NCBI GenBank assembly: GCA_964396485.1
Contig: CAYNFN010000413.1
Span: 1-48,407, forward strand
Direction: 5' to 3'
Length of the DNA stretch: 48,407 nt
Source: an uncultured Alcaligenaceae bacterium
GTDB lineage: Bacteria; Pseudomonadota; Gammaproteobacteria; Burkholderiales; JACQAP01
Below the pieces are notes generated by a model. It saw only the letters and a program-made list of their open reading frames with translations, did not search any database and was not told the DNA's origin. Positions 1,257-48,277 of this stretch are shown here, one piece after another. The position numbers and the translations under genes were made by a program. Positions within the stretch are counted from its first letter, which is position 1, and the number at the start of each line of letters is the position of its first letter.

Positions 1257-1994
1257 ATGACCACCTCGCCGCCCGAGAGAAACATCACGCTCTCGATCGT
1301 CAGCCACCGGCAGAACGTGCTTGTCAACAAGCTCCTCGAGGACGTCAATCGCGTCTGCGCCGACCGGGTCGCGCTCGTGCTGACGCAGAACGTGCCCGAT
1401 CCCCTGCCACTTGCTACGGCAGATGTGCCTTGCCCGGTGGAGGTCGTCGCGAACGAAAGCGTCAAGGGCTTCGGCGCGAACCACAATGCAGCGTTCAAGC
1501 GCTGCCGCACGCCTTGGTTCTGCATCTGCAACCCCGACATCCGCCTGCCCGCAGATCCCTTTCCTCCGCTTCTCGAGGCGCTCGCCGATCCCCGCGTTGC
1601 CGTCGCCGGCCCGCTCGTGCGCGGCCCCGAGGGGCGGGTCGAGGACAGCGTACGGCGCTTTCCGACCTTGGGATCGCTCGCGAAGAAGCTTTTCCTGGAC
1701 CGCCGCGAGCCCGATTACCCGGCCGACCGAGGTCCGCTTGAGGTCGACTGGGTAGCGGGCATGTTCATGCTTTTCCGCAGCGACGCCTACCGCGCGGTGG
1801 ACGGATTCGACGAGGCGTATTTCCTTTACTATGAGGATGTCGATATCTGCCGGCGAGTCCACCGTGCGGGGCGGCGCGTGACCTACGATCCACGAGCAGA
1901 AGTCATCCATCAAGCACGCCGCGCGAGCCGGCGTGATCTCCGACTCACGAGAATTCATCTGAGCAGCATGCTCAGATTCCTGCTGTCTTCCTAG
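1257..1994 (+). CDS. GT2-family glycosyltransferase (rhamnosyltransferase-like)
   Basis: 245-aa ORF with ATG start. N-terminal ITLSIVSH strand, FGANHNAAF, and the GT-A family-2 acidic motif YYEDVDICRRV. First gene of the + block. Confidence 0.85.
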   Translation: MTTSPPERNITLSIVSHRQNVLVNKLLEDVNRVCADRVALVLTQNVPDPLPLATADVPCPVEVVANESVKGFGANHNAAFKRCRTPWFCICNPDIRLPADPFPPLLEALADPRVAVAGPLVRGPEGRVEDSVRRFPTLGSLAKKLFLDRREPDYPADRGPLEVDWVAGMFMLFRSDAYRAVDGFDEAYFLYYEDVDICRRVHRAGRRVTYDPRAEVIHQARRASRRDLRLTRIHLSSMLRFLLSS

Positions 1995-1998: not shown

Positions 1999-3291
1999 GT
2001 GGCTGCGAACCAGAGCTTTCATCTCGTAACCGCCGTATGGGGCTCCGAGTACACCGACACATACCTTAACATCTCCCTTCCGAGCCTGCTCGCGCCCGGC
2101 AATATCCCGAGCCTGCCGGCGGCTCATTGCACCTACAAGATCTTTTCGCCCGAAGCGGACGCCGAGCGCATTCGTCAGTCGGAGGCATTCAAGGCGCTGG
2201 CCGCCTTGGTCACGGTTGAGTTTCGCCCGCTCAACCGCATTCAAGAAAACCCTTACATCACTTCCTCGAATTGCTACCGCACAGCCACGATCGAAGCGGG
2301 CCAGTCGCGCGCAACCATTCTCTACCTCATCCCCGACATGATCCTAGCGGATGGCAGCCTGCGCGCCGTCAAGCGGTTTCTCGATGAGGGCAAGCGCGCC
2401 GTCATGGTTGCTGGCATGAGGGCCGTGAAAGAAACCTTGGTCCCCGAGGCGCTGGCGCGCTTCCGGACCGGGCACGCGGTGTCGGCGCCGCCCAGGCAGC
2501 TAGTGGAGCTCGCCATGCGCCACCTGCACCCCATCATGCAGCACCACTTCTACGAAAACGAAGGCAGCCGCGGTTTCAACCCGTCCTTCTTCTGCTGGGA
2601 AGTGCCTGGAGAAGGGTATGTCGTGCATTGCGCCCACCTGCACCCGGTTGCAGTGGATTTGCGCGGTCAGCGCGCCACCTTGCACGGCACCATCGACGAC
2701 GATCTCCTGTTCGACCTCGGCCTTAGCGCCGACGAGCTCGCATATGCCGACGACTCGGACGACGTGCTCTGGTTCGAGATTAGCGCAGGCGACCGGAGGA
2801 TTCCCCCGCCCATCGGAAAGCGCCTATGGGAAATCCTGCGCTGGCTGAACGGCGCGACTTATCCCCACCAGCGAGCATACCTCTCCCATGCGCTACAGAT
2901 TCATTGCCGTGGCACCGACAGTGCCGCATGGCGCGCGACGGAAGCGCGCGCCGCCAAGACCATCGCGACCATGCTGGCGGCTTACGAACTGGAGAAAGAG
3001 CGCATTCGCGAGAGTCCCGCGGACTATGCAGCACCGCCAGCAGTACGCATTGGCGACGAGGAGCTTGCCGGCGACCCTGCTGCGGCCATACGCAAGATCA
3101 TGGACGTCGCCGGCGCCGCGGTTGTCGTGGACGCCGTTGCCGAGGCGCTGGAGGTGCGCGCGCGCTCATATCTCGCCCGGGGAACCAGCCGCAGGATCGA
3201 CCGCTCGTTTATCAAGCTCGGTATTGCAATGACGATTGTCGGCGCCGGTAAGGCGTTCCGCGCTTTGCTGAAACGCCTGAAGCGCGGTTGA
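1999..3291 (+). CDS. Uncharacterised putative GT-A-like transferase, paralogue A of a 4-member family
   Basis: 430-aa ORF with a GTG start 4 nt after the preceding stop. Shares HLVTAVWGSEYTDTYLNISLPSLLAPGNIPSL and a DxD-like PDMILADGS motif with the ORFs at 4585(+), 8748(-) and 14704(-). Basic amphipathic C-terminus (KAFRALLKRLKRG). I cannot name a family. Confidence 0.75.
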   Translation: MAANQSFHLVTAVWGSEYTDTYLNISLPSLLAPGNIPSLPAAHCTYKIFSPEADAERIRQSEAFKALAALVTVEFRPLNRIQENPYITSSNCYRTATIEAGQSRATILYLIPDMILADGSLRAVKRFLDEGKRAVMVAGMRAVKETLVPEALARFRTGHAVSAPPRQLVELAMRHLHPIMQHHFYENEGSRGFNPSFFCWEVPGEGYVVHCAHLHPVAVDLRGQRATLHGTIDDDLLFDLGLSADELAYADDSDDVLWFEISAGDRRIPPPIGKRLWEILRWLNGATYPHQRAYLSHALQIHCRGTDSAAWRATEARAAKTIATMLAAYELEKERIRESPADYAAPPAVRIGDEELAGDPAAAIRKIMDVAGAAVVVDAVAEALEVRARSYLARGTSRRIDRSFIKLGIAMTIVGAGKAFRALLKRLKRG

Positions 3292-3316
3292 GCCGGCGCA
3301 GCGCTAGCACACCCGG

Positions 3317-4588
3317 ATGATTCCGGCACAATTCGGTATTCGTTTTCGCGCCAGGATTCATCGTGCGCTGACGGAGGGCCTGCTCGCGACTCTTACGGCG
3401 CTTTCCCGGCCGGTTGTCAAGTCCGTTCTGTGGCTCGCCCTTCTGCCGTTGACCGCTGTGCTGCACGTCGCCGGCTACCGACGCCTCCCTGTCCTAACGG
3501 AACGAATTGGCCATCTCGCCGCAGAGGTGGATTCGTTCCTCAAGGAGCGCGCCCTCGGAGCGTTGCCTCGCCGAAAGTACTTCATCACCGCCCCGGCGCG
3601 CCGAGTCGCCAATGCGTGGCTGTTGCGCTACTGGGCACGCGAAGTCCCTGTCGTATCCCACCCGGTTCCCTGCTTCCTGCTGGACAGCATGTCGCGCTGG
3701 GAGCTGATGCGCAGCAGCGTGCGCGAGTACGTCCTGCGTCTTAACCAGACCGCCGCCGCATACCGGATCGCATCGATGTGGGGAGAGCGCCCGTCCTTGC
3801 TCACACTGACAGACGAGGACAAGGAGTGGGGGGGCGAGGTGTTGCGCGAGCTCGGCGTTCCGCGTGACGGCTGGTTTGTCGCCGTGCACGTGCGCGAGGG
3901 TGGATACTCCACGGCCGATGAAGAAGTCCACCGCCATCGCAACGCTTCCATCGAGGCTGCCCTGCCCGCCATGCGCTGCATCGTCCAGCGAGGCGGCTAC
4001 TGCATCCGTATGGGCGACCCTGGCATGGCGCCGCTTTCAAAGGAGCAGGGCATCGTTGACTACGCGCGCCACGCCGCCAAGTCGGCACGAATGGATATTT
4101 ATCTTTGCGCCAGGACGAGATTTTTCCTGGGCAACTCCTCGGGCCTGGCCTTCGTCAGCGCCGCGTTCGGCGTGCCATCGGCGCTCGCCAACATGACGCC
4201 GTTCTCCACCTTCGGCCTCCTGCCGCGCGACCTGAGTATCCCGAAGCTTCTCTGGAGCGAACGCGAAGCCAGATTCCTGCGTTTCGACGAGGCGCTCGCC
4301 TCCCCCGCGAACAATTACCGCTATGCCGCCTTCTACGAGGCAGCAGGCTTGCGGCCCGTGGAGAACTCGGCTGAAGATATCGCCGCACTTGTCGAGGAGA
4401 TGATGGACGTCATGGAAGGCCGGACGGCCTACAGCCCGCTGGACCGCGCCAGGCAGGACGCATGCCGCGCGCTGCTTCGGCCCGGCCACTATTCGTACGG
4501 GACCTGCGCCCATATCGCCGCCTCCTTCCTCCGCGCGCATAGTGACTTGTTGCCCGGGGAGCCGTCCGCGCTCCGAGCGTCCGCATGA
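3317..4588 (+). CDS. Putative glycosyltransferase (TIGR04372-like by recollection; function uncertain)
   Basis: 423-aa ORF with codon usage like its neighbours. Hydrophobic N-terminus (LLATLTALSRPVVKSVLWLALLPLTAVL), then RIGHLAAEVDSFL. The C-terminal FFLGNSSGLAFVSAAFGVPSALANMTPF resembles GT-B-type donor-binding regions. Its stop overlaps the next start (ATGA at 4585-4588). Confidence 0.55.
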   Translation: MIPAQFGIRFRARIHRALTEGLLATLTALSRPVVKSVLWLALLPLTAVLHVAGYRRLPVLTERIGHLAAEVDSFLKERALGALPRRKYFITAPARRVANAWLLRYWAREVPVVSHPVPCFLLDSMSRWELMRSSVREYVLRLNQTAAAYRIASMWGERPSLLTLTDEDKEWGGEVLRELGVPRDGWFVAVHVREGGYSTADEEVHRHRNASIEAALPAMRCIVQRGGYCIRMGDPGMAPLSKEQGIVDYARHAAKSARMDIYLCARTRFFLGNSSGLAFVSAAFGVPSALANMTPFSTFGLLPRDLSIPKLLWSEREARFLRFDEALASPANNYRYAAFYEAAGLRPVENSAEDIAALVEEMMDVMEGRTAYSPLDRARQDACRALLRPGHYSYGTCAHIAASFLRAHSDLLPGEPSALRASA

Positions 4589-6417
4589 AGCCGCGCGTCA
4601 AGGTCCTTGTGGCGGTATGGGGCGGCTCCTACATAGACGCATTCACACGTCTCGCGCTGCCCTCGCTCCTCGCCCCCGGCAACCTCCCCGCACTGGCTGA
4701 AGCGTGCGAGCTGGACGTCTGCATCCTGACGAGCGAGCAGGACGTACACCTTTTCGAAACCAAGCCCGCCTTCCAGGGGCTGCGCGCTCTCTGCGAGGTC
4801 GAGTTCGTCAGCATCGATGACCTTCTCGGATCGTCGGTCTACGGCATCACGCTGACGCTCGCGTACATGCGCGGCATCGGCACCGCAGGCGAGAACATGG
4901 TCAACGTGCACTACATGTTCTTCAACTCGGACTTCATCCTTGCCGAAGGCTCGCTCAGGTCGCTCCTCCGCCGGATCCTCGACGGCCGAAGGGTCGTGAT
5001 GGCGCCCAGCTTCCGCGCTGTTGCGGAGGACATCGAGCCGCTCCTCGAAGCGAGAGTGGATCCCTTCCGACATACCTTGGCCATTCCGCCGCGCGAGCTC
5101 GTTGGACTGGCGCTTCGGCACGTGCATCCGACGATCGTGGCGAAAACGGTCAATCAAAACGTGTTTCGGTCTTTGTACCAGAACCAGCTCTATTGGCGCG
5201 TGGACAAGGACACGGTTCTGGGCCGCTTCTATCTCATGTTCATGCTGTGCATCCGTCCTGAGCGCATCGTGCGGAGGGCGAACACTTATTGCGATTACGG
5301 GTTCGCACCGGAATTGTGTCCCTCTCTCGAGCCGGTTTTCCTCACCGACTCGGACGAATTCTTCATGCTCGAAACGCAAGCGCGCCGGCACGAATCCGTG
5401 CACATCCGCCTAGGCAGCCATCGGATATCAGATGTAGCGGGGTACGTATCCGAATGGACCACGAGAGAGCATCGGCTCTACGCCAAAGAAAATCTGATCT
5501 TTCATGCTGCAGACGTACCGCCGGATATTGAAGCGTTTGTCACCGAAGCCGGGAAAACCGTGCAGGGAATCGAACAGCAGTTGCCACTTGCCAGACCGCA
5601 CGCATTTCATCCGTACTGGGTCGGTTCGCTTCCTTTGTGGAGGAAGGAGATCGGGCAGCGTGGCGGAGGTGCTAACCCGCCGGAACTGGATCCGGTTGCC
5701 GATATACCCGTCAATCGAAACTTGGTGGGCAGGATATTCGGCCTAGCGCGGAACGTCGCTCGTGGAACGCAGGATGAATTAAAGATATGGCATGCCGGCT
5801 GGCTGGACCAGCGGATGATTGATCAGGTGCTGCATGATGTAAGACCGGACGGTCGTGTCCTGATAGTCGCAGACGAACTGCCCGCCGCGGCGAGGCGGTT
5901 TTCGCAACGAGGAGAGATCGACCGATTGACGCTCCGGCAGACCATTGAAATGGCGAATGGATCCGGAAACCGGGGACACTACGACGATGTGCTCGTGCTC
6001 GTGAGGTCCCAGCAGGTCGGAAGCGATTCCGACAAACTTCCATCTGCGCTTCTATCACTGGTACGGCCCGAGGGATGGCTCCGCTTGGTCGTGCACGACC
6101 CCGGAAGCGAATTCATGCCTATGTCTCTCGCGGAGCCACTCTTGAGCTTGCTGGCCCGAACGTTCGACACTTGCCGAGTCCAGGCGAGCGTCGAGTTCGT
6201 TGACGCTGGATTGCAGCGGCGAATCCGGCTTGGCGTGCGAAGGCTGGGCCAGCTTTACCTGCGCCTGGGATGGGCTTGGGCGCCCGTCCTCGCCCTCGCC
6301 GGATTCGCCCTTCTCATCGGCAACGTGCTGAACCATATCCGCTGGATCATCCGAGGAGACAGGGGCGATCAGCCCGACTACTGCGGCACGATGCTGGTGA
6401 GGGTGCGGAAGCTCTGA
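4585..6417 (+). CDS. Uncharacterised putative GT-A-like transferase, paralogue B, with long C-terminal extension and tail-anchor helix
   Basis: 610-aa ORF. N-terminal VLVAVWGGSYIDAFTRLALPSLLAPGNLPAL and SDFILAEGS motifs match the paralogue family. A ~320-aa extension ends in the hydrophobic helix WAWAPVLALAGFALLIGNVL. Confidence 0.75.
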   Translation: MKPRVKVLVAVWGGSYIDAFTRLALPSLLAPGNLPALAEACELDVCILTSEQDVHLFETKPAFQGLRALCEVEFVSIDDLLGSSVYGITLTLAYMRGIGTAGENMVNVHYMFFNSDFILAEGSLRSLLRRILDGRRVVMAPSFRAVAEDIEPLLEARVDPFRHTLAIPPRELVGLALRHVHPTIVAKTVNQNVFRSLYQNQLYWRVDKDTVLGRFYLMFMLCIRPERIVRRANTYCDYGFAPELCPSLEPVFLTDSDEFFMLETQARRHESVHIRLGSHRISDVAGYVSEWTTREHRLYAKENLIFHAADVPPDIEAFVTEAGKTVQGIEQQLPLARPHAFHPYWVGSLPLWRKEIGQRGGGANPPELDPVADIPVNRNLVGRIFGLARNVARGTQDELKIWHAGWLDQRMIDQVLHDVRPDGRVLIVADELPAAARRFSQRGEIDRLTLRQTIEMANGSGNRGHYDDVLVLVRSQQVGSDSDKLPSALLSLVRPEGWLRLVVHDPGSEFMPMSLAEPLLSLLARTFDTCRVQASVEFVDAGLQRRIRLGVRRLGQLYLRLGWAWAPVLALAGFALLIGNVLNHIRWIIRGDRGDQPDYCGTMLVRVRKL

Positions 6418-6459
6418 CTCGGAAGGGTGAAGGGAAGATTTCTAATAGTCCCCTGCTTA

Positions 6460-6489
6460 CTCGCGAGGCCGTCAACGCTCGCGAGGCCG
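6460..6489. repeat. 12-bp direct repeat CTCGCGAGGCCG x2 (18-bp period) in the 6418-6532 spacer
   Basis: Copies at 6460-6471 and 6478-6489 read directly from the sequence. Each contains the palindrome TCGCGA. Confidence 0.9.
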
Positions 6490-6520
6490 CCGCGCTTGTA
6501 CAATTCCGCGTGAGACTCAA

Positions 6521-6526
6521 AGGAGG
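6521..6526 (+). promoter_or_regulatory. Shine-Dalgarno AGGAGG for the TTG-initiated methyltransferase gene at 6533
   Basis: AGGAGG sits 6 nt upstream of the TTG at 6533. This supports the non-ATG start. Confidence 0.6.
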
Positions 6527-6532
6527 CCGATT

Positions 6533-7330
6533 TTGCAAGTCACTTTTTTTCAACGAGCCAAGAACTCTCTAAAGCGCCGCCTGGGCCTTCCGCGCAAGTA
6601 CGCGCCTCGCGACCCCTTTCTGGTCGATGATTGCCTCGTGCAGAGCATTCCACACCTGTTCGAAGCGCTGCCGGACCAGAGGGAATTGTTCGCCCGCATC
6701 TGGGACGAATATCGAGAGAACCACGGTCGTCCGTGGGATCCCATCCGCATCCTCCAATTCATGTATCTGATGGATATCGCCAACCGGACCGGGCCCGGGG
6801 ACTACATCGAGCTCGGTACGCACCAAGGGTTGATGGCGAAGGTGATCTGGAAGCTGATGGATCCCAAGCGCACCCTCTATTGCCTCGACACCTTCGAGGG
6901 ATTCGTCGAATCGGACCTCAAGGTCGAAGCGACGATCTACCATAGCCGGTGGCAGGTGGGGAACTTCGCGCCGACATCGCCGGAGATGGTCGGCAACTAC
7001 ATCGGCAGCGGCAAGACCCCGCAGAACCTGAAGCTCGTCAAAGGATGGTTCCCGCAAACCTTTGCGGGCCTCGAAGACAAGAAATGGCGCTTCGTTCACA
7101 TCGACTTCGATCTCTACCAGCCGATAAAGAGCGCGATGGAGCTCTGCTGGCCGAATCTGCTCCCTGGAGGAGTCATGGTTATCCATGACTACGGCTGTTT
7201 CGGTTTCCCCGGCGCAAAGAAGGCAGTCGATGAATTCTTTGAGACGGTGGGGTTGACGCCCATTCACATAGGGGACCGGTGGGGAAGCGTGGCGGTGGTC
7301 AAGCCACGAACCCCGTACAAGGCTAGCTAG
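6533..7330 (+). CDS. TylF/MycF/NovP-type (macrocin-O-methyltransferase-like) sugar O-methyltransferase
   Basis: 265-aa ORF. GDYIELGTHQG (SAM motif I), CLDTFEGF, HIDFDLYQP and VIHDYG match the metal-dependent TylF-family pattern. Confidence 0.85.
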   Translation: MQVTFFQRAKNSLKRRLGLPRKYAPRDPFLVDDCLVQSIPHLFEALPDQRELFARIWDEYRENHGRPWDPIRILQFMYLMDIANRTGPGDYIELGTHQGLMAKVIWKLMDPKRTLYCLDTFEGFVESDLKVEATIYHSRWQVGNFAPTSPEMVGNYIGSGKTPQNLKLVKGWFPQTFAGLEDKKWRFVHIDFDLYQPIKSAMELCWPNLLPGGVMVIHDYGCFGFPGAKKAVDEFFETVGLTPIHIGDRWGSVAVVKPRTPYKAS

Positions 7331-8748
7331 TCGTCAGCGGGGACCTGCCCCTTGATCACCCCGGCCAGGTACCGCATGCTGCGCTTGATTCGCTTCCTCG
7401 CGGTCGCGTCCCCGCTGAGCGCCTGCTTCGCGATCCCGAGCACCCGCTCGCGGTTATTCCAGTAGTAGCCGCACAACTGCGGTACCAGAGAGAGCGCGCG
7501 GATCAGCCGTGCTGCCCTTAACCTCCTTGTCGGCAGCGCGCGTCGCGCACTAACCGTGCGCTCATTGCCCGGTGCCTGCCCTCTCGCCGCGGCGCCGATC
7601 ATGCTGCCGACATATTTCTGCAGGATGCGCGCGGCCTTGCTCTCGACGGCGCGCCAGCGCGGCTCATCGATCTCGCCGCCATGCCAGTAGACAGGCCTTG
7701 CGAAAAGGCTTCGCTTCAGGGGATCGAAACTCGGATCGCACAGCGCTTCGTAGAAGCGCAGGCCCTTGAGCCACTCGCCGACGAAGCGCCGCTGGAATTG
7801 CGGATTGGGCGCGAGGGAATAGGCGCGCTCGGCAAGCGGAGCCCAGCTCACGAGCATGACCTCGTCGGAATCCTGAACCACGTACACCTTGCCGCCGAGG
7901 CCGAAATTCCGATGGAGGTAGTCGCCGTCGATCGTCCAATGGTCCATCACCGAGCTGTCGTGCTGCGCGACCGCCTCGTAGTCCACGATCAGGGGAAACC
8001 ATGAAAGGGAATGCATGACGACGCCGTCTTCGCCGGGCACGCGCCACCAGCAGGCGGAGGGAAAGGCCGAAAAATAAGGGGCGTCCCACTCGTAGCTGAG
8101 CGTCTCGCTGTGAAAGCTCCGGATTCCCGCCCAGGCGAGCTGCCTCCCGGTCACGACGAGCGCCCGCCCCTCGTCGCCGAGGCGGGAATCGATCGAGGCG
8201 ACGCCGAGCTGCGCCAGGTGCTCGAAGAGCGGCTCCTCCCCAAATCGAAGGGCGGGCGTGAGCACCAGGTGAACGCCTTCCAGCGCGTGCTTTTGAGCGA
8301 GCGCGATGCTCCCGTCGGAGACGATGAGATCAGGCGTCAGCACGACAGCGTAGGCGCGCTGCTCGAATGCCATCTGCGTCGCAAGCTTGTGGCCGATCCC
8401 CATATGAAGGTGGATGGGCACCCCCTCTGGGGGCAGCGGGATGCGAATAAAAATCGGCTCGACATACTTCTTCAGGAGCGAGACGATTGGATGGGCCTCG
8501 ATTCGCTTCCAGTCCTCGTCCGTGGTCGCGATCAGGAACCGGTTGCCCCGGTTACGCAGGGCGGGGATGTTATTTGGCGAGAGCAGCGCGGGAATGCAGA
8601 ACTGGAGCAGAAAATTCGTGAAATGCTCGCCCCAGACCACAACCGCGAAGTAAATGGGCCGCAAGGCGGCGGCCTTCTCCAGGAAGGCCTCATCGGGCAC
8701 GGGCAGCGGTGGACGGCCCCGCGGGCCGGCCGGTGGCGTCTGTTCCAC
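7327..8748 (-). CDS. Uncharacterised putative GT-A-like transferase, paralogue C
   Basis: 473-aa ORF. IYFAVVVWGEHFTNFLLQFCIPALLSPNNIPAL and PDLIVSDGS motifs. Closest by eye to paralogue D (shared FLI[AS]TT.(E/D)DW, YVEP[IV]FI, GH[KR]LA). Amphipathic basic C-terminus. Confidence 0.75.
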   Translation of the reverse strand: MEQTPPAGPRGRPPLPVPDEAFLEKAAALRPIYFAVVVWGEHFTNFLLQFCIPALLSPNNIPALRNRGNRFLIATTDEDWKRIEAHPIVSLLKKYVEPIFIRIPLPPEGVPIHLHMGIGHKLATQMAFEQRAYAVVLTPDLIVSDGSIALAQKHALEGVHLVLTPALRFGEEPLFEHLAQLGVASIDSRLGDEGRALVVTGRQLAWAGIRSFHSETLSYEWDAPYFSAFPSACWWRVPGEDGVVMHSLSWFPLIVDYEAVAQHDSSVMDHWTIDGDYLHRNFGLGGKVYVVQDSDEVMLVSWAPLAERAYSLAPNPQFQRRFVGEWLKGLRFYEALCDPSFDPLKRSLFARPVYWHGGEIDEPRWRAVESKAARILQKYVGSMIGAAARGQAPGNERTVSARRALPTRRLRAARLIRALSLVPQLCGYYWNNRERVLGIAKQALSGDATARKRIKRSMRYLAGVIKGQVPADD

Positions 8749-8773
8749 GATTCTTCGACCGCGCCGCGGCGGC

Positions 8774-9847
8774 CTAGGTCATGACTTCGGGGCTCTGCTC
8801 GACCAGTCCGCTGGGCGGCGCGGGGTGCCCTCCCAGCAGCCGACCCTTCCAATTGTGCAAGCGCCCGATCGTGTTGTAGTAGGTGAACTCCGGCGAGCGC
8901 CGAATCAGCAGATCGTCGCGCACTTCTTCTTCGAATTCGTGCTGGGCCCAGCCGTTGCATCCAGTGCAGAACGGAACTTTGTCCCACTGGGCCGTCTCGT
9001 GGTAGTAGCGCACCTTCGCGAACTGTTCCCCCTGCCAGACTGCTGCGGCACCCTCCTTGAATACGTTGCCGAGATTGGTCTGCTTGAAACCGTCGAGACA
9101 GCACACGGTCACGGTACCGTCGTTGTGCACCGGCATCGTGTTATAGATCGCCGGGCATGGCCGGCGCACCGACGGCGTATTCATGCCCGGGAAGGTGCCA
9201 TCTTTGAATACCAGGCCCATCCGCACCACATCCACTACCCCCACCCAGCGTTTGACGAAATCGTCTACTTCATGACGATTGTCGTCCTGGATGGTGAACG
9301 ACACGCCTACCCTGGGCTTGTCGGCCTCGCCTCGTGCGCGCAGCAGACGGAATACCGCCGCTTCGATTTTCGCAAGCTTGTCAATGCCTCGGATCTTCCG
9401 TAAGGTCTCCGGCGACACAGCGTCGATGCTGATCATTACCGAATCGACCTCCTGCTCGACAAAATAGCGCGCCAGGTCGTCGCGCAAGGTGAGGCCGTTG
9501 GTATTCATTGCGATCGATATGCCACGCGATTTCATGTCGGCGATGCGCTCACGAAGCTTGGGCGCAAGCAACGGCTCGCCGTACATATTCGGCTGAATCA
9601 GCGGTTTCGCGGCCATAAACTCATCCAGCAACCTGCGCGAGGACTCGAGGTCCATAACGCCCTTTACCGAGTCGATGGCATCTTCGTCTCCCGTCCCCCA
9701 GACCGGGCACATCGGGCAGCGCAGGTTGCATTTGGTCGCGAGGTCGAGCAGCAGCCGCGGGGGGAGATCCGGAACTGGCCTAGGTACCCAGCCATACTTC
9801 GGATCTACCCAATCGGCTTTTGACCAGTCGCGCATTGATACCGTCAT
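8774..9847 (-). CDS. Radical SAM enzyme with SPASM/Twitch-type C-terminal auxiliary-cluster domain
   Basis: 357-aa ORF. CX3CX2C motif in LDLATKCNLRCPMCPVWG. C-terminal C-x12-G-x4-C (CPAIYNTMPVHNDGTVTVCC) and FCTGCNGW. No B12-binding domain is evident. Confidence 0.9.
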   Translation of the reverse strand: MTVSMRDWSKADWVDPKYGWVPRPVPDLPPRLLLDLATKCNLRCPMCPVWGTGDEDAIDSVKGVMDLESSRRLLDEFMAAKPLIQPNMYGEPLLAPKLRERIADMKSRGISIAMNTNGLTLRDDLARYFVEQEVDSVMISIDAVSPETLRKIRGIDKLAKIEAAVFRLLRARGEADKPRVGVSFTIQDDNRHEVDDFVKRWVGVVDVVRMGLVFKDGTFPGMNTPSVRRPCPAIYNTMPVHNDGTVTVCCLDGFKQTNLGNVFKEGAAAVWQGEQFAKVRYYHETAQWDKVPFCTGCNGWAQHEFEEEVRDDLLIRRSPEFTYYNTIGRLHNWKGRLLGGHPAPPSGLVEQSPEVMT

Positions 9848-9882
9848 GGAAGTTGCGTACTCAATATGCAGCTAGAATTATT

Positions 9883-9888
9883 ATTATA
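9883..9888 (-). promoter_or_regulatory. Candidate -10 hexamer (TATAAT) for the radical-SAM / paralogue-C unit
   Basis: Perfect TATAAT on the minus strand 35 nt upstream of the ATG at 9847. It lies inside the only AT-rich stretch of the 9848-9982 divergent spacer. No convincing -35. Confidence 0.35.
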
Positions 9889-9890
9889 CC

Positions 9891-9916
9891 TACCGGTGTC
9901 CACCAACCGTACCGGT
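9891..9916. repeat. Two copies of TACCGGT (palindromic ACCGGT core), 19-bp period
   Basis: TACCGGT at 9891-9897 and 9910-9916. The second is embedded in GTACCGGTA. Located in a divergent promoter spacer. Confidence 0.85.
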
Positions 9917-9982
9917 ATTACCGAATGACCTTATTGGACGGTCCCGCTATTATCCACGTGCCGTGAATAGACTCGCTTAAGG

Positions 9983-11269
9983 GTGCGTATGCGCGACGAG
10001 AACACTTCTGCAATTGAATCTCGCATCGTGGACGAAAAGCTAGCCATTGATGGGGGGCAGCCGGTTCGTAGCCGGCCCATGCCGCCGCGCTTCGCGCTGG
10101 GAGCCGCGGAGATCGGCATGCTCGAGGAGGCAGTCCGGTACTACCGCAACAAGGACGTGGATCCGGGCTATCAAGGCCCCTTTGAGAAACTTTATACGGA
10201 CGAGTTCGTCGCCATGATGGGCGGCGGTTATGCCGACTCCGTCGCCACTGGTACCGCAGCGCTCTACATCGCCATCGCCGCGCTCGACCTGCCCAAGGGC
10301 AGCGAAGTGATCGTATCGCCAATCACGGACCCCGGCACGATCAGTTCGATCATCCTGAACGGACTGCGGCCTCGTCTGGCCGATACCCGCCCCGGCGACT
10401 ACAACATGGGATCCGAGCAGGTCATCGCGCGACTTACGCCGGCGGTGTCAGCCGTGCTAGTGGTCCATGCTGGCGGCCGGTCTACCGACGTCGATCGCAT
10501 CGTCGCCGCGGTGCGTCCGCGAGGCCTCCGTGTGATCGAAGATTGCAGCCAGGCGCACGGCGCACAGATTTTCGGGCGTCCGGTCGGCACTTTCGGGGAC
10601 ATTGCGGCGTTCTCGACCATGTATCGCAAGATACACATGTCCGGAGGATCCGGCGGAATGGTCTATTCGCGCGATCTCGCGATCTTCCGTAACGCTCTCG
10701 CGCACGCTGATCGCGGCAAACCGCGCTGGCAGACCGACTTCGACGACCGGAACCCTGAGACCTTTCTCTTTCCTGCGCTCAATTGGAACAACGACGAACT
10801 TTCTTGCGCGATGGGGCTTGCTTCCCTCCGGCGCCTGAAGGACACGATCGTTCGCCGGCTTGCGTTCGTTTCTGAGCTCGCGTCGCTCATGTCCGAGATG
10901 GACACGATGTTTTCCCTTCTGCCGTGGCGTCCCACGGACTCGCCATTCGTCGTACCGGTTTTCATAGACCCGGCGCGCGCAAAGCGGCCGAAAATCGCCA
11001 TTGCGGAGGCTGTGCTGAAGGAAGGTATCGGCCTCAACCCGCACTATCGATATGTCGTGTCGCAATGGCCATGGGTCAAACCACACCTGGCGGACGATTT
11101 CGACACGCCCGAGGCGGTGAACAGCCGCGACCGGAGCTTCTGCCTGTACGTCAATGAGAACTACACGGAGGAGGAAGCGCTGGACACGGTGGCGACACTC
11201 GTCAAGGTAGACCGGGCCCTTGCGGCAGCTAGGCCGCGACCGATCGTAGTGCCCATTCGATCACTGTGA
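9983..11269 (+). CDS. DegT/DnrJ/EryC1/StrS-family PLP-dependent sugar aminotransferase
   Basis: 428-aa ORF (GTG at 9983; ATG at 9989 preceded by AAGGG is an alternative start). KLAIDGGQPVR, ATGTAALYIAIAAL, EDCSQAHGA, and a candidate PLP-Lys region FSTMYRKIHMSGGSGGMVYS. Confidence 0.85.
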   Translation: MRMRDENTSAIESRIVDEKLAIDGGQPVRSRPMPPRFALGAAEIGMLEEAVRYYRNKDVDPGYQGPFEKLYTDEFVAMMGGGYADSVATGTAALYIAIAALDLPKGSEVIVSPITDPGTISSIILNGLRPRLADTRPGDYNMGSEQVIARLTPAVSAVLVVHAGGRSTDVDRIVAAVRPRGLRVIEDCSQAHGAQIFGRPVGTFGDIAAFSTMYRKIHMSGGSGGMVYSRDLAIFRNALAHADRGKPRWQTDFDDRNPETFLFPALNWNNDELSCAMGLASLRRLKDTIVRRLAFVSELASLMSEMDTMFSLLPWRPTDSPFVVPVFIDPARAKRPKIAIAEAVLKEGIGLNPHYRYVVSQWPWVKPHLADDFDTPEAVNSRDRSFCLYVNENYTEEEALDTVATLVKVDRALAAARPRPIVVPIRSL

Positions 11270-12156
11270 CGCGGCTTTTGGCTCGATCGCCACGCCTCGC
11301 CAGTCGTGTATTAGCCCGGAAAAAGGGCACGCGAGCCAGGCCGCGAGAGCCGGAACGTGAAGCGATCCGGTGCATCCTGAAGAGCTACGCGGTACCCCGC
11401 GATGCGGTGCTCGTCGTGCACAGCGCAATCAGGTGCCTAAGCCGCGAAGGCTACCGCGCTGAAGCCATGATCGAAGCCCTGCTCGAATATCTGGAACACG
11501 GCACCTTGATGATGCCCGCCATGACGTGGCGCACGGTAACGCCGGAGAATCCGGTCTGGGACGAGCTCACCACACCCTCGCATACCGGTATCTTGAGCGA
11601 GATATTCAGGACGCGCTACGCTACCGCACGCAGCCTACATCCGACGCATTCGGTTGCGGGAGTCGGGCCGCTGGCGCAGGCGCTGCTATCAACCCACCAT
11701 TTCGGCAACACGCCGGTCCCCGCAACGAGCCCGTATGGACTGATGCGGGACTATCCAGCCTATATTCTCATGATCGGTGTCGGGCTGGAGAGCTGCACGG
11801 CGATCCACCATCCGGAGGAAGTGATAGCGCCGCATATTTACGTCAAGCTGGCAGAGGACGCGGAAAGATACGAGCTGCGCGACCGAGAAGGACGTCGGAT
11901 CGAGTTTCACCTGCGCAGGCACTCGCGGCTCAACCGGAACTTTCCCAAGTTCGCGCCGCTGCTTGCCGCGAAATCCCGAATCCGGTCGGGAACGGTATCA
12001 AGAGTCCCCTGGACCCTGGTGAAGGCAAGCGATCTGCTGGCAGAGGTTTTCACGCGCCTGATTGAGCAGCCCGACTTCAACCTCTCCAACGACGCCCGTC
12101 GGATCTGGACGGCGGCTGCAAAGAACACAGTCGGCCGCGGCTACGCGAAGGCATAA
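11266..12156 (+). CDS. AAC(3)-fold (aminoglycoside 3-N-acetyltransferase-like) N-acyltransferase, probably acting on an amino sugar
   Basis: 296-aa ORF. GTGA start/stop overlap with the aminotransferase. VLVVHSAIRCLS ... GTLMMPAMTW ... PSHTGILSEIFR ... RSLHPTHSVAGVGP ... CTAIHHPEE is the Antibiotic_NAT pattern. Confidence 0.8.
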   Translation: MTRLLARSPRLASRVLARKKGTRARPREPEREAIRCILKSYAVPRDAVLVVHSAIRCLSREGYRAEAMIEALLEYLEHGTLMMPAMTWRTVTPENPVWDELTTPSHTGILSEIFRTRYATARSLHPTHSVAGVGPLAQALLSTHHFGNTPVPATSPYGLMRDYPAYILMIGVGLESCTAIHHPEEVIAPHIYVKLAEDAERYELRDREGRRIEFHLRRHSRLNRNFPKFAPLLAAKSRIRSGTVSRVPWTLVKASDLLAEVFTRLIEQPDFNLSNDARRIWTAAAKNTVGRGYAKA

Positions 12157-13301
12157 AGAACGGTTTCGATGATTCCGCCGTCGTGCTGGCGTAAGTACAG
12201 GCGATAGTCAGCGCCGAGTTCTCTTACGAGACGGGGGATTTCCCAGAGATCGCTGGGACGGTGGTACAGGGAGATTGCGAGCTTAGGGCACCACGAAGCG
12301 ATTGTTTTTGCGGCCCCTGCCAATGCTTCGCGCTCGGCGCCCTCGATATTCATCTTGATGAAGCTCGCGCGCTCTCCCGCCAGTACTTCATCGAGGCCAA
12401 CCACGGTGATCTTGGATTTCGCAGCCGTGGAAATGACGGCGCCCCTGGAGCCGTCTTCCGTGAACCCCAGCGCGGCCTTGGCGCGATGGAGTCCACAATT
12501 AAAAAGCTCCACTCTGGGCACAGCCTGAAGGTTCAGCGACAATCGCGAAAACGTGCGCGGATCCGGTTCGAATGCCAGAACGCGTTCGTAGCTGCCATTC
12601 ACCCGCTCGACGAACATGCGGACGGAATCGCCGTCGTAGGCTCCGCCATCCACGTACACCTCGTTGTCCCGGAACTGGAGAAGTCCGGAGAAACCGTACA
12701 GGTCCCAATCGATGACGTCGGCAAGCACTGCAGCATCCATTGTTAACCGGTACCCCAAGAGGCGGTCTAGCACCTTTACGGATTGTTCGTCTTGCAGCGT
12801 ACCGGCGAGCTCAAGGTAGCGCGACCGGTTGGCGCATACGTCACCGAGCAGGTCATCATGAAACATATGCGAAGGAAACACGTTGGGGTCCAGCACCTGC
12901 AGCAGCGCGAAGGGCGCGACTTGGAACCCCATGGCTCGCAATGACTCGGTTGCGCCGAGGACCCTGTGAGAGGCGATCACCACGGGAACCGAGCGCTCGA
13001 GCGAGCCAATCGCGTCCGAGGGGACGACCTGATGCTCGCCGACCCTGATGCCGCGCTTGGTCGCGTCGTTGTCGTAGACACCGGCAATGGCAATGCCCTG
13101 CGCGGCGCAGATGGACGCCAGCCTCCTGCCCTCGGCGCCCGCGCCCAGAATCGCGAGGCTGGTTGGAAGACCATGGTGCAGAAAGGCATAACGTTCGCGC
13201 AGCGATGCGCGTAAGTCGCCGGTTGAAATACCGTGCGAGATCCGTTCCAGCCACGGCATCCGCGGTTCTGTCGTCATTCTTATCTTTTGGGGCGGTGTCA
13301 T
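12141..13301 (-). CDS. FkbM-family methyltransferase with N-terminal Rossmann-like domain
   Basis: Trimmed to the ATG at 13301, which forms an ATGA overlap with the upstream stop. N-domain LAILGAGAEGRRLA...IAGVYDND. The C-domain YVDGGAYDGDSV ... VLAFEPDP ... FIKMNIEGAEREAL ... ISLYHRPSDLWEIP is typical of FkbM (TIGR01444-like). Confidence 0.8.
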   Translation of the reverse strand: MTPPQKIRMTTEPRMPWLERISHGISTGDLRASLRERYAFLHHGLPTSLAILGAGAEGRRLASICAAQGIAIAGVYDNDATKRGIRVGEHQVVPSDAIGSLERSVPVVIASHRVLGATESLRAMGFQVAPFALLQVLDPNVFPSHMFHDDLLGDVCANRSRYLELAGTLQDEQSVKVLDRLLGYRLTMDAAVLADVIDWDLYGFSGLLQFRDNEVYVDGGAYDGDSVRMFVERVNGSYERVLAFEPDPRTFSRLSLNLQAVPRVELFNCGLHRAKAALGFTEDGSRGAVISTAAKSKITVVGLDEVLAGERASFIKMNIEGAEREALAGAAKTIASWCPKLAISLYHRPSDLWEIPRLVRELGADYRLYLRQHDGGIIETVLYAFA

Positions 13302-14704
13302 CGTAGGGCTTTGCCTTTGACGTATCGCGTCTCGCTCTCCACCGTTGTCTGCCGAGTTTGAAACGCATGTATTCGTCTCAGCACCTGCTTGACATAGCGT
13401 CTGGGAACCATCCTGACCAGTCGCTCCAGCGTTTCGCGCTTCGCCCGGCCAAGCAACGGACCGATCATCCATCCGAATCCCATGCGCAGGAGATAGGCCT
13501 CGCCGCGGCGATAGGTGGCTCTGAGTTTCGCGATGAGCCTTGCGATGAGTTTCGCAACGAGCTTGCGGTCGCCATATCGGATCTGGAGCATCACTTGGGA
13601 CAGGGCAATGGCGGCATAGTGCCGGAACCGCTCCCCGGCTCCCATCCGTAGGGCGCGCGCGACTACAGAGGCGGACCGCTTAGCGGTGGAGGTCGAGGCC
13701 TCCACCAGCTCATCGCCATGAATGTGTACGGGTATGGTGTAGGCCAACCGCCTGAAATCGTCGACGTCGGGTCCGGTGAGAAATCGCCGGATATCGACTA
13801 GCCGCTGGCTCAAGCCGCCAGGGGTGCGATTGATGCGGCGGTACTGCATCGGGTAGAAGGTGAGCTCCGATTCCGGAGTCAGAGATATGAACAGTGCTTC
13901 GTCCGAATCGCTCGAAAGATAGAGTTGCCGTCGGTCGTTTCCCCGGTAGAAGTTCCTATAGACATACTGACCGTCTATCGTGTCTGTTTCCAGAATGCTG
14001 TCCGAGTAGCCGTGAGTATCAGCAAAATCTGCGAGCAACAACGCCCAGCTTACCGTGTGCACGACCATTGCACTGCCACCCGGGACGCGCCAGTACGACC
14101 AGATGGGGTAGTCGCCGAAGGAAGGCGCCTCGAATTCATATCGGCGGATCTCCGAATGCAGGGATTCGCACGCCAGCCCAGCGAGCAGCCGTGGGTCTAG
14201 CTGCATCGGCTGGTCAGGCCGCAAGAGGTTCAGCCGGCCGAGCGAGCTTACTACCGGCTCCATTGCGTAACGAAGCGCCGCGGCCAGCACGACCTTCTTC
14301 CCGCTGCGCGCCTTGTCGATCACGAAGGCCACCGTCCCGTCCGAGACAAGGAGATCGGGCGCGAAGAAGCCGGCCCAGACCCCGTCCTCGACTGCCCGGC
14401 TCGCGGCTAGGCGATGTCCCTTCGACATGTGCAGGATCGGAAGATCCTCCTTCCCCGGATAGCCGATATCGATGAATACCGGCTCGACGTATTCCCTCAT
14501 GCGCTCGAACAACGGACGTCCTTCGAGCCTGGACCAGTCATCCTGTGTAGTGGAGATGAGAAACTTGCATCCTGGGAGCCCACGCAGCGCGGGCAGATTG
14601 TTCGGCGACAATAGCGAGCTCAGGCATAGCGAATAGAAGTATTCCCTGAAGCGATCACCCCAGAACGTGACCATCAGGTAATACGGACTTGATCTCACGC
14701 GCAA
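13298..14704 (-). CDS. Uncharacterised putative GT-A-like transferase, paralogue D
   Basis: 468-aa ORF. TTG at 14704; GTG at 14698 or ATG at 14674 are possible starts. YYLMVTFWGDRFREYFYSLCLSSLLSPNNLPAL and PDLLVSDGT motifs. Amphipathic repeat-containing C-terminus. Confidence 0.75.
   Translation of the reverse strand: MRVRSSPYYLMVTFWGDRFREYFYSLCLSSLLSPNNLPALRGLPGCKFLISTTQDDWSRLEGRPLFERMREYVEPVFIDIGYPGKEDLPILHMSKGHRLAASRAVEDGVWAGFFAPDLLVSDGTVAFVIDKARSGKKVVLAAALRYAMEPVVSSLGRLNLLRPDQPMQLDPRLLAGLACESLHSEIRRYEFEAPSFGDYPIWSYWRVPGGSAMVVHTVSWALLLADFADTHGYSDSILETDTIDGQYVYRNFYRGNDRRQLYLSSDSDEALFISLTPESELTFYPMQYRRINRTPGGLSQRLVDIRRFLTGPDVDDFRRLAYTIPVHIHGDELVEASTSTAKRSASVVARALRMGAGERFRHYAAIALSQVMLQIRYGDRKLVAKLIARLIAKLRATYRRGEAYLLRMGFGWMIGPLLGRAKRETLERLVRMVPRRYVKQVLRRIHAFQTRQTTVESETRYVKGKALR
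13523..13570. repeat. Imperfect in-frame 12-nt tandem repeat x4 inside paralogue D
   Basis: The units are gagtttcgcgat, gagccttgcgat, gagtttcgcaac and gagcttgcggtc. On the minus strand they encode DRKLVAKLIARLIAKL. Confidence 0.8.
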
Positions 14705-14719
14705 GGCGCCAACACCGAG

Positions 14720-15394
14720 TCAACTCTGCCGCGGACTAACGCACAACGCCCAGAGGTAATGCCCCATGGGCGCGAACCCGGTGTGCAGCACTTCGTCATT
14801 CATCGAGAACAGGAACACGTTCCTGAAGTATTCGCTGCAGAGCGCCCGCAACGTCTTGTGATCCTTGAGATTGACGTGCCCAGTCTTCGAGTGCGGCGAC
14901 GCGTAGACCTCCGCGGTCATGTTCGGCGTCCCGATGATGACGATGCCGTCGGTTTCGATGCTGGCGACCATATGCTCGAGCAGCGCGCGCTCTTCTTCCG
15001 CAAAGATGTGCTCCAGAACGTCTATCAAGTAGATCGCGCTCACACGCTCGTCGAACGGTGCCGACCTAAAATCATGATAGCGGTAGGTGATATTTGGGAA
15101 AGCAGATGCCTGCCGCCCGATGTTGTCCGCAATTGTTTCGGCATCTATGTCGGTACAAACAAGCTTGTCCACCCCCTGCGCCACGATGGGCGCGCCGAAG
15201 CCGTCTCCGCAGCCGATCTCCAAGGCAGACTTGCGGCCTTCGACCATCTTCGAAACGAACTTGTAGCGCGCAGCGTGAAATACCAGATGCTTGGGGTCAT
15301 GAACGTAGCTCTGGGCCGTGGCGGTTCCCAGACGAACGTCATACCTCGGAAGATCACCGTGCAGTTTAAGCCAGAGTTCCTTCGAATCGCGCAT
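14720..15394 (-). CDS. Class I SAM-dependent methyltransferase (paralogue of 18158-18925)
   Basis: 224-aa ORF. ALEIGCGDGFGAPIV (motif I), IYLIDVLEHI. The C-terminal HVNLKDHKTLRALCSEYFRNVFLFSMNDEVLHTGF is colinear with the 18158 gene product. Confidence 0.85.
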   Translation of the reverse strand: MRDSKELWLKLHGDLPRYDVRLGTATAQSYVHDPKHLVFHAARYKFVSKMVEGRKSALEIGCGDGFGAPIVAQGVDKLVCTDIDAETIADNIGRQASAFPNITYRYHDFRSAPFDERVSAIYLIDVLEHIFAEEERALLEHMVASIETDGIVIIGTPNMTAEVYASPHSKTGHVNLKDHKTLRALCSEYFRNVFLFSMNDEVLHTGFAPMGHYLWALCVSPRQS

Positions 15395-15452: not shown

Positions 15453-16217
15453 TCATGCGCTTGACTTGGTTTGCGTCAGCTCGTGGTAGGCCGCCAATAC
15501 CTCTTCGACTTCGCCGATCTTCAAGGCCTTTCCCTGGTCCATGAGCACGGCCTTGTTGCACATGATGCGGATGAGAGAGTCGGCATGAGACGCGAGGACC
15601 AGAATGCTCGTCCGCTGTATCAGGGCGTCGATTCTCCTGTTCGCTCTTTCAGCAAAACGTGCATCGCCGGCGCCGAGGCCTTCGTCAAGGAGAAGGATCT
15701 CGGGATCGATGGCGGTCGCGATGGCGAATCCCAGGCGAACCAGCATCCCGCTCGAGTAGGTGCGCACGGGGAGTTCGAGGTATTCGCCCAGCTCGGTAAA
15801 TGCCGCGATATCGCCCACCTTGGCTTCGATCTCGCGGATCGACATGCCGAGGAACAGTCCGCAGGTGAAAATGTTCTCATAGCCGGTGTCGTCAGCCACC
15901 ATGCCGGGGCTCGTATTTAATAGCGGGGAGACGCGGCCTTCCATGATCAGCCGGCCTGCGACTGGCTCGTAGACCCCCGCAAGCACCCGCAGCAGCGTGG
16001 ATTTGCCAGCGCCGTTGTGCCCGATCAAACCTATGCGGTCGCCATGCTCGACGCTGAACGATATGTCGTCCAGGGAGCGCACCGTCACCCTGCGGCTGTG
16101 CTTCTGGTCATGCTTGATCAGCCCGCCTGCCTTTTGCAGCAAATCCCTCTTGAAGCTGCGAATGCTCTCGTAGATCGGAAAGTCGACCGTGACGTTTTCC
16201 AGGCGTATGGATGCCAT
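15453..16217 (-). CDS. wzt: Polysaccharide ABC transporter ATP-binding protein (Wzt/TagH type, no C-terminal carbohydrate-binding domain)
   Basis: 254-aa ORF. Walker A GHNGAGKST, signature YSSGMLVRL, Walker B ILLLDEGL. The protein ends shortly after the NBD. Confidence 0.9.
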   Translation of the reverse strand: MASIRLENVTVDFPIYESIRSFKRDLLQKAGGLIKHDQKHSRRVTVRSLDDISFSVEHGDRIGLIGHNGAGKSTLLRVLAGVYEPVAGRLIMEGRVSPLLNTSPGMVADDTGYENIFTCGLFLGMSIREIEAKVGDIAAFTELGEYLELPVRTYSSGMLVRLGFAIATAIDPEILLLDEGLGAGDARFAERANRRIDALIQRTSILVLASHADSLIRIMCNKAVLMDQGKALKIGEVEEVLAAYHELTQTKSSA

Positions 16218-25150: not shown

Positions 25151-25152
25151 CG

Positions 25153-27829: not shown

Positions 27830-27845
27830 GCCTTCGGACGAACGC

Positions 27846-34946: not shown

Positions 34947-34981
34947 GAGGGCGGCGATGCCGCCGGGGGCGGGGCGGATGC

Positions 34982-35866: not shown

Positions 35867-36354
35867 TGCGCCTGGCCGCCGAGTTGCGGAGTCTCCATTC
35901 GATGCTTGCTGAGATGCAACCATACGGCGAAGCTGTCGTAGGGGGTAACGCGCCGGTTCAGCAGAAGTTCCCGTCCACCGACCGCTTCAAAGGCGGCGCC
36001 TTCATGCAAGGTGAACTTCGCAAAGGCTGCGGCGGAAACCTGCACCTCGTAGTAAATGCGGAACACTCTGCTTCCCCCTAGCTCCGAAAAATCGAAATCG
36101 AAGCGCGTCAGCACTTTCGGCGGCGCCTCGAGCTCGTATTCCAGTTCCTCTTTGAGCTCCCGTGCGAGGGCGGACAAGGGCGGTTCGCTTCCATTTACTG
36201 CGCCGCCGAAGCAGCCCCAATGGTCCGGATAGAAGATGCCAGGAATGTTATCTCGGAGCTGCATGACGTAGCGACCGTCGGCGAGAACCAGAACCGCGGC
36301 TACCGCGTCCGCGCCCCTCAGGGGTGTCTTGGCATCTAGGAGAAGGTGCTGCAA
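35863..36354 (-). CDS. NUDIX hydrolase
   Basis: 163-aa ORF. The Nudix box [25 protein letters not shown] fits Gx5Ex7REUxEE. Confidence 0.85.
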
Positions 36355-44379: not shown

Positions 44380-44389
44380 GGTTTAACTC

Positions 44390-46386: not shown

Positions 46387-46387
46387 A

Positions 46388-47122: not shown

Positions 47123-47135
47123 TTGAACTCCCTGA

Positions 47136-48253: not shown

Positions 48254-48277
48254 GGAGAAGGGCCGAAAAAGGATCAA

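Follow-up and report, generated by a model that had tools for sequence, protein, structure and literature searches.

The window studied here is the whole of a 48,407-nucleotide (nt) contig (CAYNFN010000413.1) from an uncultured Alcaligenaceae bacterium. It is a glycan-biosynthesis locus, and it encodes four related proteins, A to D, that no named family covers. On the strength of sequence comparison and predicted structures, we consider it likely that A to D are a divergent, unnamed, GT2-like branch of the GT-A superfamily of glycosyltransferases (GTs), and that they are active, membrane-peripheral Leloir enzymes that would build or branch an exported glycan. What is new is a family without a name, or else a deep subfamily of GT2, marked by the non-canonical signature [N/T]-x-D ... 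D-S-D; in predicted fold, in context and in probable chemistry it stays with ordinary Leloir glycosyltransferases, and a faint sequence bridge links it to GT2.

Four paralogues outside the named families

The four genes are listed with the lengths of their products in amino acids (aa) and, for A and D, the E-value against a hidden Markov model (HMM) of the family.

1999-3291 (+): A, A-type subfamily, 430 aa; predicted GT-A-like core and basic helical C-terminus; family HMM E 1e-83
4585-6417 (+): B, B-type subfamily, 610 aa; predicted GT-A-like core (aa 1 to ~360), methyltransferase-like domain and one transmembrane (TM)-like helix
7327-8748 (-): C, C-type subfamily, 473 aa; predicted GT-A-like core (aa 30 to ~360) and three basic C-terminal helices
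13298-14704 (-): D, 468 aa, nearest to C; family HMM E 8e-126

A first-pass annotation of this DNA had singled out these open reading frames (ORFs), and the ORF list contains each of them at the position and on the strand listed. Pairwise BLASTP comparisons, computed with an effective database size of 1e8, place their similarity well above chance: C and D share 36% identity (E 1e-61 to 1e-66), A and B also share 36% identity (E 1e-25), A matches C with E 1e-17 to 1e-20 and D with E 1e-13 to 1e-15, and even the weakest pairs, B/C and B/D, reach E 1e-7 to 1e-11. A to D are true paralogues in two pairs (A/B and C/D), and the family HMM found no copies in the window beyond these four.

The first-pass annotation could assign these proteins to no named glycosyltransferase family, and our searches agree. 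A to D have no match in Pfam or NCBIfam even at E ≤ 1, and searches of the PDB sequences with 4-sequence and 76-sequence profiles returned no match. A word-indexed search for relatives yielded 525 for C, 257 for B and 48 for A, all named 'hypothetical' in their source, and none of them has a precomputed Pfam domain over the family region.

A predicted GT-A fold

We modeled B and C with AlphaFold2 (AF2), using family alignments, and compared the models with the PDB using Foldseek. The model of C has a predicted local distance difference test score (pLDDT) of 89.6 and a predicted template-modeling score (pTM) of 0.87; the corresponding values for B are 87.0 and 0.82. At E ≤ 1e-3, Foldseek returned 102 matches for C and 116 for B, and gave over 100 GT-A chains a probability of 1.00. 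The highest-ranked matches of C are nearly all GT-A glycosyltransferases, mostly GT2, and include TarP (1.4e-6), RmlT, BcsA, the Chlorella-virus hyaluronan synthase, WrtF (template-modeling (TM) score by target of 0.46-0.47), K4CP, GalNAc-T2, GlfT2 and GlcAT-P. The list for B mixes GT-A glycosyltransferases with methyltransferases that use S-adenosylmethionine (SAM); its core matches COLGALT1, XXYLT1, LH3, SpsA (root-mean-square deviation of 4.7 Å, 161 columns), glycogenin and K4CP.

The GT-A fold is a single Rossmann-like α/β/α domain with a central mixed β-sheet, whose common core has eight strands and six helices (PMC7185993). The order of secondary structure elements in the AF2 model, β-α-β-α-β-α-β-(Asp)-β, fits this fold. 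The GT-A-like fold that the first-pass annotation had proposed to check by Foldseek is thus borne out by two confident models, each retrieving over 100 chains from the PDB at E ≤ 1e-3, and we predict a GT-A fold for the family of A to D.

Conserved motifs and C-termini

The two motifs by which the four ORFs had first been grouped are present in A to D and in 0 of the 201 other ORFs in the window (205 ORFs of at least 80 aa). To these we add a third motif, D-S-D-[DE], which had been overlooked. Conservation is given below over 84 diverse family members, and residues are numbered as in C.

N-terminal motif, the loop after β1 and the helix that follows: A 2035-2115 (+), VWGSEYTDTYLNISLPSLLAPGNIPSL; B 4615-4695 (+); C 8557-8637 (-); D 14585-14665 (-)
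Acidic block: C 8308-8334 (-), PDLIVSDGS, with D140 at the end of β4; A 2332-2358 (+); B 4927-4953 (+); D 14333-14359 (-)
Third motif: C 7861-7872 (-), D293-S294-D295-E296; A 2752-2763 (+); B 5347-5358 (+); D 13898-13909 (-)

The N-terminal pattern stands as first described except for its spacer, where eight variable residues match all four ORFs but the nine originally claimed match none; its W, G and N are 100% conserved. The acidic block follows the Trp of the W-G motif by 99-104 residues, so that the earlier figure of about 90-100 was roughly right. Its description as a DxD-like block was correct as to position, the loop after β4, but it is not a true DxD: the sequence is [N/T/I/A/S/V]-x-D, and the second Asp alone is kept. 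The first position is N in 49 members, T in 19, otherwise I, A, S or V, and Asp in none. The remaining Asp, D140, is 100% conserved, and in the AF2 model of C it ends β4 and is followed by a short strand. Since the GT-A DxD is placed right after β4 in the WrtF paper (PMC12595478), the position of this invariant residue puts the acidic block at the DxD site, with only the second Asp surviving. The [DE]-G that comes after it is less conserved (D in 87%); in GT2, it aligns to where the next helix begins.

The [DE]-G of the acidic block is also less conserved than the third motif, which lies 139-153 residues beyond that block in A to D. The Ser and second Asp of the third motif are 100% conserved, its first Asp is conserved in 95% of members, and DSD was found in 237 of 238 homologues; the motif may serve as an xED-type catalytic base or as a metal site. 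Across the whole alignment, the invariant or nearly invariant residues are W39, G40, N60, P62, D140, R168, E172, R202, H213, W235, D274, D293, S294, D295 and H356 (the last at 95%), and the window paralogues retain all of them, except for an alignment gap at D274 in B. Eight positions, including two Asp, one His and the W-G loop, are 100% conserved at a mean column identity of about 18%; no conserved G-loop glycine was identified. The published order of the GT-A core motifs is DxD, xED and C-His (PMC7185993), and the order D140, D293-S294-D295, H356 agrees with it. Because of this agreement, D295 may be the catalytic base and H356 a possible metal ligand.

The C-termini had been described as basic amphipathic or hydrophobic. 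All four are basic, with 12-18 K+R against 3-5 D+E in the last 70 residues, but only B is hydrophobic: Kyte-Doolittle hydropathy locates a TM-like segment at about aa 560-585 (nt 6262-6339) in B and no hydrophobic TM segment in A, C or D. B also contains a class-I-methyltransferase-like α/β domain (aa 406-540, nt 5800-6204, + strand), over which a second group of Foldseek matches is formed by the class I SAM-methyltransferases BioC, PMT, RebM and TleD. This domain has VLIVADELP in place of the GxGxG SAM loop, and its conservation across the B-type alignment is low; it is therefore probably degenerate, with a structural role.

Relation to GT2 and to other known systems

The family resembles GT2 (PF00535, including SpsA, TarP, RmlT, K4CP, WrtF, BcsA and hyaluronan synthase) in its predicted GT-A fold and best structural matches, in an invariant Asp at the end of β4 that aligns with the second Asp of the GT2 DxD, in a recurrent sub-threshold Pfam signal, and in the location of its genes in polysaccharide loci beside bona fide GT2 genes. 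When the 84 members were each scanned individually against Pfam at E < 0.1, 14 matched PF00535 Glycos_transf_2 with E 0.002-0.1, and other Pfam families were matched by one member each, mostly as accessory domains (TPR, SPRY) or noise. One two-domain relative, P0247, scores 26.6 bits against the GT2 gathering score of 23.3; in this match, residues 496-548, which contain the acidic block YFVFLNADFVFSNGSL, align to positions 75-127 of the GT2 profile. We also built a GT2 HMM from the loci found in this analysis and ran it against 409 family sequences, using it solely for residue correspondence. Its segment 'lvlmDcDlqdaPe' was repeatedly aligned to FVFMNSDFVLADG in B-type or MFLAPDLVLSEG in C-type members, such that 'DcD' falls on the family's 'N-S-D' or 'A-P-D'; in these weak alignments, the invariant Asp coincides with the second Asp of the GT2 DxD. 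A degenerate DxD also occurs among some GT2 enzymes, as G-A-D in WrtF, a metal-independent GT2, and as N-[AS]-G-D in its relatives (PMC12595478).

In contrast to GT2 enzymes, A to D reach no Pfam GT2 model even at E ≤ 1. Their β1 loop reads W-G-x-x-[YF], then L-P-S-L-L-x-P-x-N-[IL]-P, where GT2 has 'P-x-Y-N'; an insertion of about 60 residues follows the acidic block; and R168, E172, R202, H213, W235 and D-S-D are motifs of the family's own.

Other known systems were compared as well. The multi-module glycosyltransferase assemblies that make O-antigen or capsule in ABC-transporter-dependent systems have repeatedly yielded new CAZy families (PMC11231755). Like the present family, WbbB (GT99/GT102/GT103), WbbM (GT111) and GT137 of Klebsiella/Raoultella present several GT modules per locus, some of them tandem-fused, some with coiled coils, and are linked to Wzm/Wzt. 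However, no sequence similarity between them and the family was seen, and none of them ranks among the best 50 matches in the PDB. In the window, neither a chain terminator nor a coiled-coil ruler was recognised, and Wzt has no carbohydrate-binding domain. GT8, GT25 and the LH3 GT domain (XXYLT1, glycogenin, COLGALT1) are among the best structural matches to the core of B, but these are enzymes of the retaining kind whose DxD is canonical and whose C-terminal elements differ, at 8-17% identity and with no profile signal.

Several results weigh against the placement of A to D as GT2-like enzymes of an export pathway. The TM-scores reach only 0.2-0.3 by query and no more than 0.47 by target, at identities of 6-17%, and the fold assignment therefore holds at the superfamily level only. 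Our GT2 HMM gives marginal E-values of 0.01-0.3 against the 409 family sequences, and hhalign comparisons were not significant (probability below 1%), whether made with the two GT2 proteins of the window or with an alignment of 14 GT2 sequences; with hhalign and the profile searches empty, sequence methods alone do not place the family. The first position of the DxD is never Asp in the 84 members, which makes metal dependence uncertain. Wzm or Wzt is found within 10 kb in under half of the loci.

The same results bear on whether this is a new family. The first-pass annotation had raised the possibility of one, and the family is indeed unnamed in the databases searched; it is not, however, wholly apart from the named families, as the sub-threshold GT2 signal in 14 of 84 members indicates. 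A divergent GT2-like clade and a new family fit the data equally well. The fuller claim is one we hold tentatively and regard as the less probable: that this is a genuinely new glycosyltransferase family, entitled to a CAZy GT number of its own, whose active site is a non-canonical [N/T]-x-D ... D-S-D and whose subfamilies serve unusual donors made by co-inherited gene cassettes, and that its members are the main glycan builders of ABC-exported surface polymers in Alphaproteobacteria, Burkholderiales and Nitrospirales from soil and water that are uncultured. An example of a C-type donor would then be a radical-SAM-modified, N-acetylated, O-methylated amino sugar.

Proposed mechanism and alternative functions

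If A to D are GT2-like glycosyltransferases, a mechanism may be outlined. The N-terminal Rossmann-like half would bind the nucleotide-sugar, with the W-G-x-x-[YF] loop after β1 and the N-x-P segment forming the nucleotide pocket. D140, as the surviving second Asp of a degenerate DxD, would hold a divalent cation on the diphosphate, possibly together with the conserved C-terminal H356, and D295 of D-S-D-[DE] would act as the general base on the acceptor hydroxyl, leading to inversion as in GT2. The basic helical C-termini, and the TM-like helix in B, would hold the enzymes at the cytoplasmic face of the inner membrane, where they may elongate or branch an undecaprenyl-diphosphate-linked glycan that Wzm/Wzt would then export; the four paralogues would make four different linkages. 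We infer catalysis itself, metal use, the catalytic base, inversion, donor and acceptor, and, from the basic C-termini, membrane association.

Other functions are compatible with parts of this evidence. A to D might be polyprenyl-phosphate glycosyltransferases of the GtrB/ArnC/DPMS type, in which a GT-A domain is joined to C-terminal membrane helices; such enzymes would make undecaprenyl-phosphate-linked sugar donors for periplasmic modification of the glycan and would not build a polymer themselves. The DPMS-like archaeal mannosyltransferase PcManGT (6yv7, 2e-4) is among the Foldseek matches, but it ranks well under TarP, RmlT and the polymer synthases. The helical, basic C-termini and the TM-like helix in B would suit such enzymes, but hydrophobic TM segments are missing from A, C and D, and none of the genes recognised in the window is a GT-C-type partner. 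The xED base is absent from GT2-DP enzymes (PMC7185993), whereas the present family has an invariant acidic motif where the base would sit, and 2-4 copies per locus with tandem fusions suit a multi-linkage assembly better. We regard this function as unlikely.

Slightly more doubtful is a role for A to D as some other enzyme with a nucleotide-diphospho-sugar fold that would activate or decorate the unusual sugars of the locus, be it a sugar-1-phosphate nucleotidyltransferase or a transferase of sugar phosphates or other groups. RmlA (4b4m, 1.7e-4) and YngB (7b1r, 2.2e-4) do occur among the Foldseek matches, the canonical DxD is degenerate and the loci are rich in sugar-modifying enzymes. Those matches, however, are confined to the shared Rossmann half (about 170-190 columns), with dozens of glycosyltransferases ranked above them. 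The RmlA-like phosphate loop G-x-G-T-R-[LM] after β1 is absent, all members having [VF]-W-G-x-x-[YF] there, and A to D have no NTP_transferase Pfam match. Related loci carry separate NTP_transferase genes, and GT2 is the sole recurrent Pfam signal.

Least probable of all, some or all paralogues could be catalytically inactive GT-A-like scaffolds that organise an assembly complex or set chain length, as the degenerate DxD, the missing SAM loop in the methyltransferase-like domain of B and the coiled coils of some relatives (P0247), like those of chain-length regulators in ABC-dependent systems (PMC11231755), might suggest, but the eight fully conserved positions, retained by A to D, form a pattern typical of active sites and not of scaffolds.

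Gene neighborhoods of the relatives

We return to A to D as GT2-like glycosyltransferases and consider the genes inherited with them. Neighbors were counted within flanks of 10 kb in loci of at least 12 kb, 44 of the C-type and 33 of the B-type.

Radical SAM/SPASM: C-type 36/44; B-type 4/33
DegT aminotransferase (type of the gene at 9983): C-type 31/44; B-type 14/33
FkbM methyltransferase: C-type 31/44; B-type 2/33
AAC(3)-like N-acetyltransferase: C-type 26/44; B-type 1/33
Split transketolase, C half and N half: C-type 29 and 25 of 44; B-type 8 and 6 of 33
Class I methyltransferases, types of the genes at 14720 and 18131: C-type 8 and 9 of 44; B-type 26 and 27 of 33
RmlD-like reductase: C-type 6/44; B-type 22/33
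TylF methyltransferase: C-type 1/44; B-type 14/33
TIGR04372 glycosyltransferase: C-type 0/44; B-type 9/33
Wzm: C-type 19/44; B-type 14/33
Wzt: C-type 15/44; B-type 16/33

The C-type genes are accompanied by a cassette of radical SAM/SPASM, DegT, N-acetyltransferase and FkbM genes that is the exact content of the window between 7327 and 14704, and the whole 7327-14704 arrangement recurs at 76% identity in a related metagenome-assembled genome (MAG; locus L133). This cassette probably makes an undescribed modified amino sugar, which the C-type members would probably transfer or accept; the B-type members would act alongside methyltransferases and an RmlD-like reductase. The tie between C-type genes and their cassette suggests an undescribed sugar together with a dedicated transferase, of interest for glycobiology and enzyme engineering.

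The first-pass annotation had proposed a survey of co-occurrence with wzm/wzt. The association is frequent, but within 10 kb it holds in only about 35-50% of loci. In the cultured Pacificispira spongiicola, a B-type gene lies directly after wzm-wzt and is followed by a gene for a 621-aa product without a Pfam match.

Two candidate assignments were dropped. Two loci had raised the suspicion that B-type members are heptosyltransferases, but homologues of GmhA, GmhB and HldE occur in just 2-9 of the 33 B-type loci; Gmh genes are found in 10-11 of the 44 C-type loci, fewer than the split transketolase. For the idea that the Xanthobacteraceae loci make bradyrhizose, nothing was found in support.

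Size and spread of the family

With a balanced profile of 54 sequences, an exhaustive HMMER search of sequences clustered at 50% identity returned 4,437 clusters at E ≤ 1e-3, 3,568 at E ≤ 1e-10 and 2,057 at E ≤ 1e-30. About 4,400 clusters, often with several copies per glycan locus, carry no annotation, and the loci for surface polysaccharides in abundant environmental bacteria (Nitrospirales, Xanthobacteraceae, Burkholderiales and others) therefore look short of glycosyltransferases. Recognition of these proteins as GT-A enzymes would close this annotation gap and would yield a profile that Pfam, NCBIfam or CAZy could take up; D140, D295, H213 and H356 are the residues that the alignment points out as candidates for catalysis. 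The Pacificispira spongiicola member is a 'hypothetical protein' in RefSeq (WP_169627136.1) and an 'Uncharacterized protein' in UniProt. We found no paper describing the family, and literature searches on TIGR04372, on the cassette (O-antigen, radical SAM, FkbM, transketolase) and on bradyrhizose biosynthesis returned nothing describing these genes.

Searching the GTDB species genomes with C-type patterns yielded 52 loci, every one of them from a MAG, in Alphaproteobacteria (including Xanthobacteraceae, Hyphomicrobiales, Methyloligellaceae, Stellaceae and Tagaea), Burkholderiales, Nitrospirales and Woeseiaceae, and a metagenome scan with B-type patterns gave 77 further loci. The nearest genome relatives are Burkholderiales and Betaproteobacteria MAGs, with 54-58% identity for C; a tblastn search of C against 72,556 plasmids returned no match. 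A locus holds one to four family copies, with 2-4 intact genes within 10 kb in 28 of the 52 loci. Two family domains are fused in tandem in P0289 and P0247, the latter also with a coiled coil, and other fusions join the family domain to a methyltransferase (P0241) or to TPR and GT41 domains (P0272).

Content of the window locus

The remaining features of the locus, with the searches that identified them where these matter, are as follows.

1257-1994 (+): canonical GT2-like gene directly upstream of A, Pfam Glyco_tranf_2_3 E 3e-11
3317-4588 (+): glycosyltransferase of the TIGR04372 family, lying between A and B; NCBIfam score 191 bits (cutoff 45)
8774-9847 (-): radical SAM/SPASM, Pfam
9983-11269 (+): DegT aminotransferase, Pfam
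11266-12156 (+): AAC(3)-like N-acetyltransferase, Pfam
12141-13472 (-): FkbM methyltransferase, longest ORF, Pfam
15453-16217 (-): Wzt, 254 aa, nucleotide-binding domain only; best NCBIfam match of the galactan-export type, below cutoff
16222-17019 (-): Wzm, ABC-2 glycan exporter with Wzt
24949-25917 (+): sulfotransferase
25930-26967: GT2
27783-29009 (+): WbuX-like N-acetyl-sugar amidotransferase, 408 aa, 199.5 bits against a cutoff of 203.2
33096-35923 (-): CysNC and CysD, supply of 3'-phosphoadenosine-5'-phosphosulfate
36362-38115 and 42814-48382 (-): split transketolase, transaldolase, GmhA-like SIS, GmhB-like HAD and HldE-like kinase/nucleotidyltransferase

A starts 4 nt past the stop of the GT2-like gene, and the stop of the TIGR04372-family gene, which has no Pfam match, overlaps the start of B. 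Together with the GT2 at 25930-26967, these make three recognisable glycosyltransferases; the earlier remark that the locus has few of them was roughly right, though it undercounted. D and the longest FkbM ORF share 175 nt at the 3' end of D, and because the L133 homologue of the FkbM protein has 383 aa, the FkbM start is probably an internal Met further downstream. Because Wzt has no carbohydrate-binding domain at its C-terminus, export probably does not depend on a chain-terminating residue being recognised.

The window also holds at least eight methyltransferases, three DegT aminotransferases and several epimerases or dehydratases of the short-chain dehydrogenase/reductase type. With the sulfotransferase and CysNC/CysD, the methyltransferase genes indicate that the product glycan is probably sulfated and heavily methylated. 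The transketolase, transaldolase, Gmh and HldE genes look like a heptose-nucleotide or branched-sugar pathway.

Two further ORFs stand apart from these assignments. The 347-aa product of 31068-32111 (-) had no match in any library searched, including the PDB sequences. The 749-aa product of 18904-21153 (+) had no Pfam, NCBIfam or PDB sequence match. Its homologues occur in 9 of 77 family loci, and in locus L053 of Pacificispira spongiicola a 757-aa gene without a Pfam match (12718-14991) lies next to a GT2. Such glycan loci therefore contain, besides the family of A to D, a second conserved protein that lacks an assignment.

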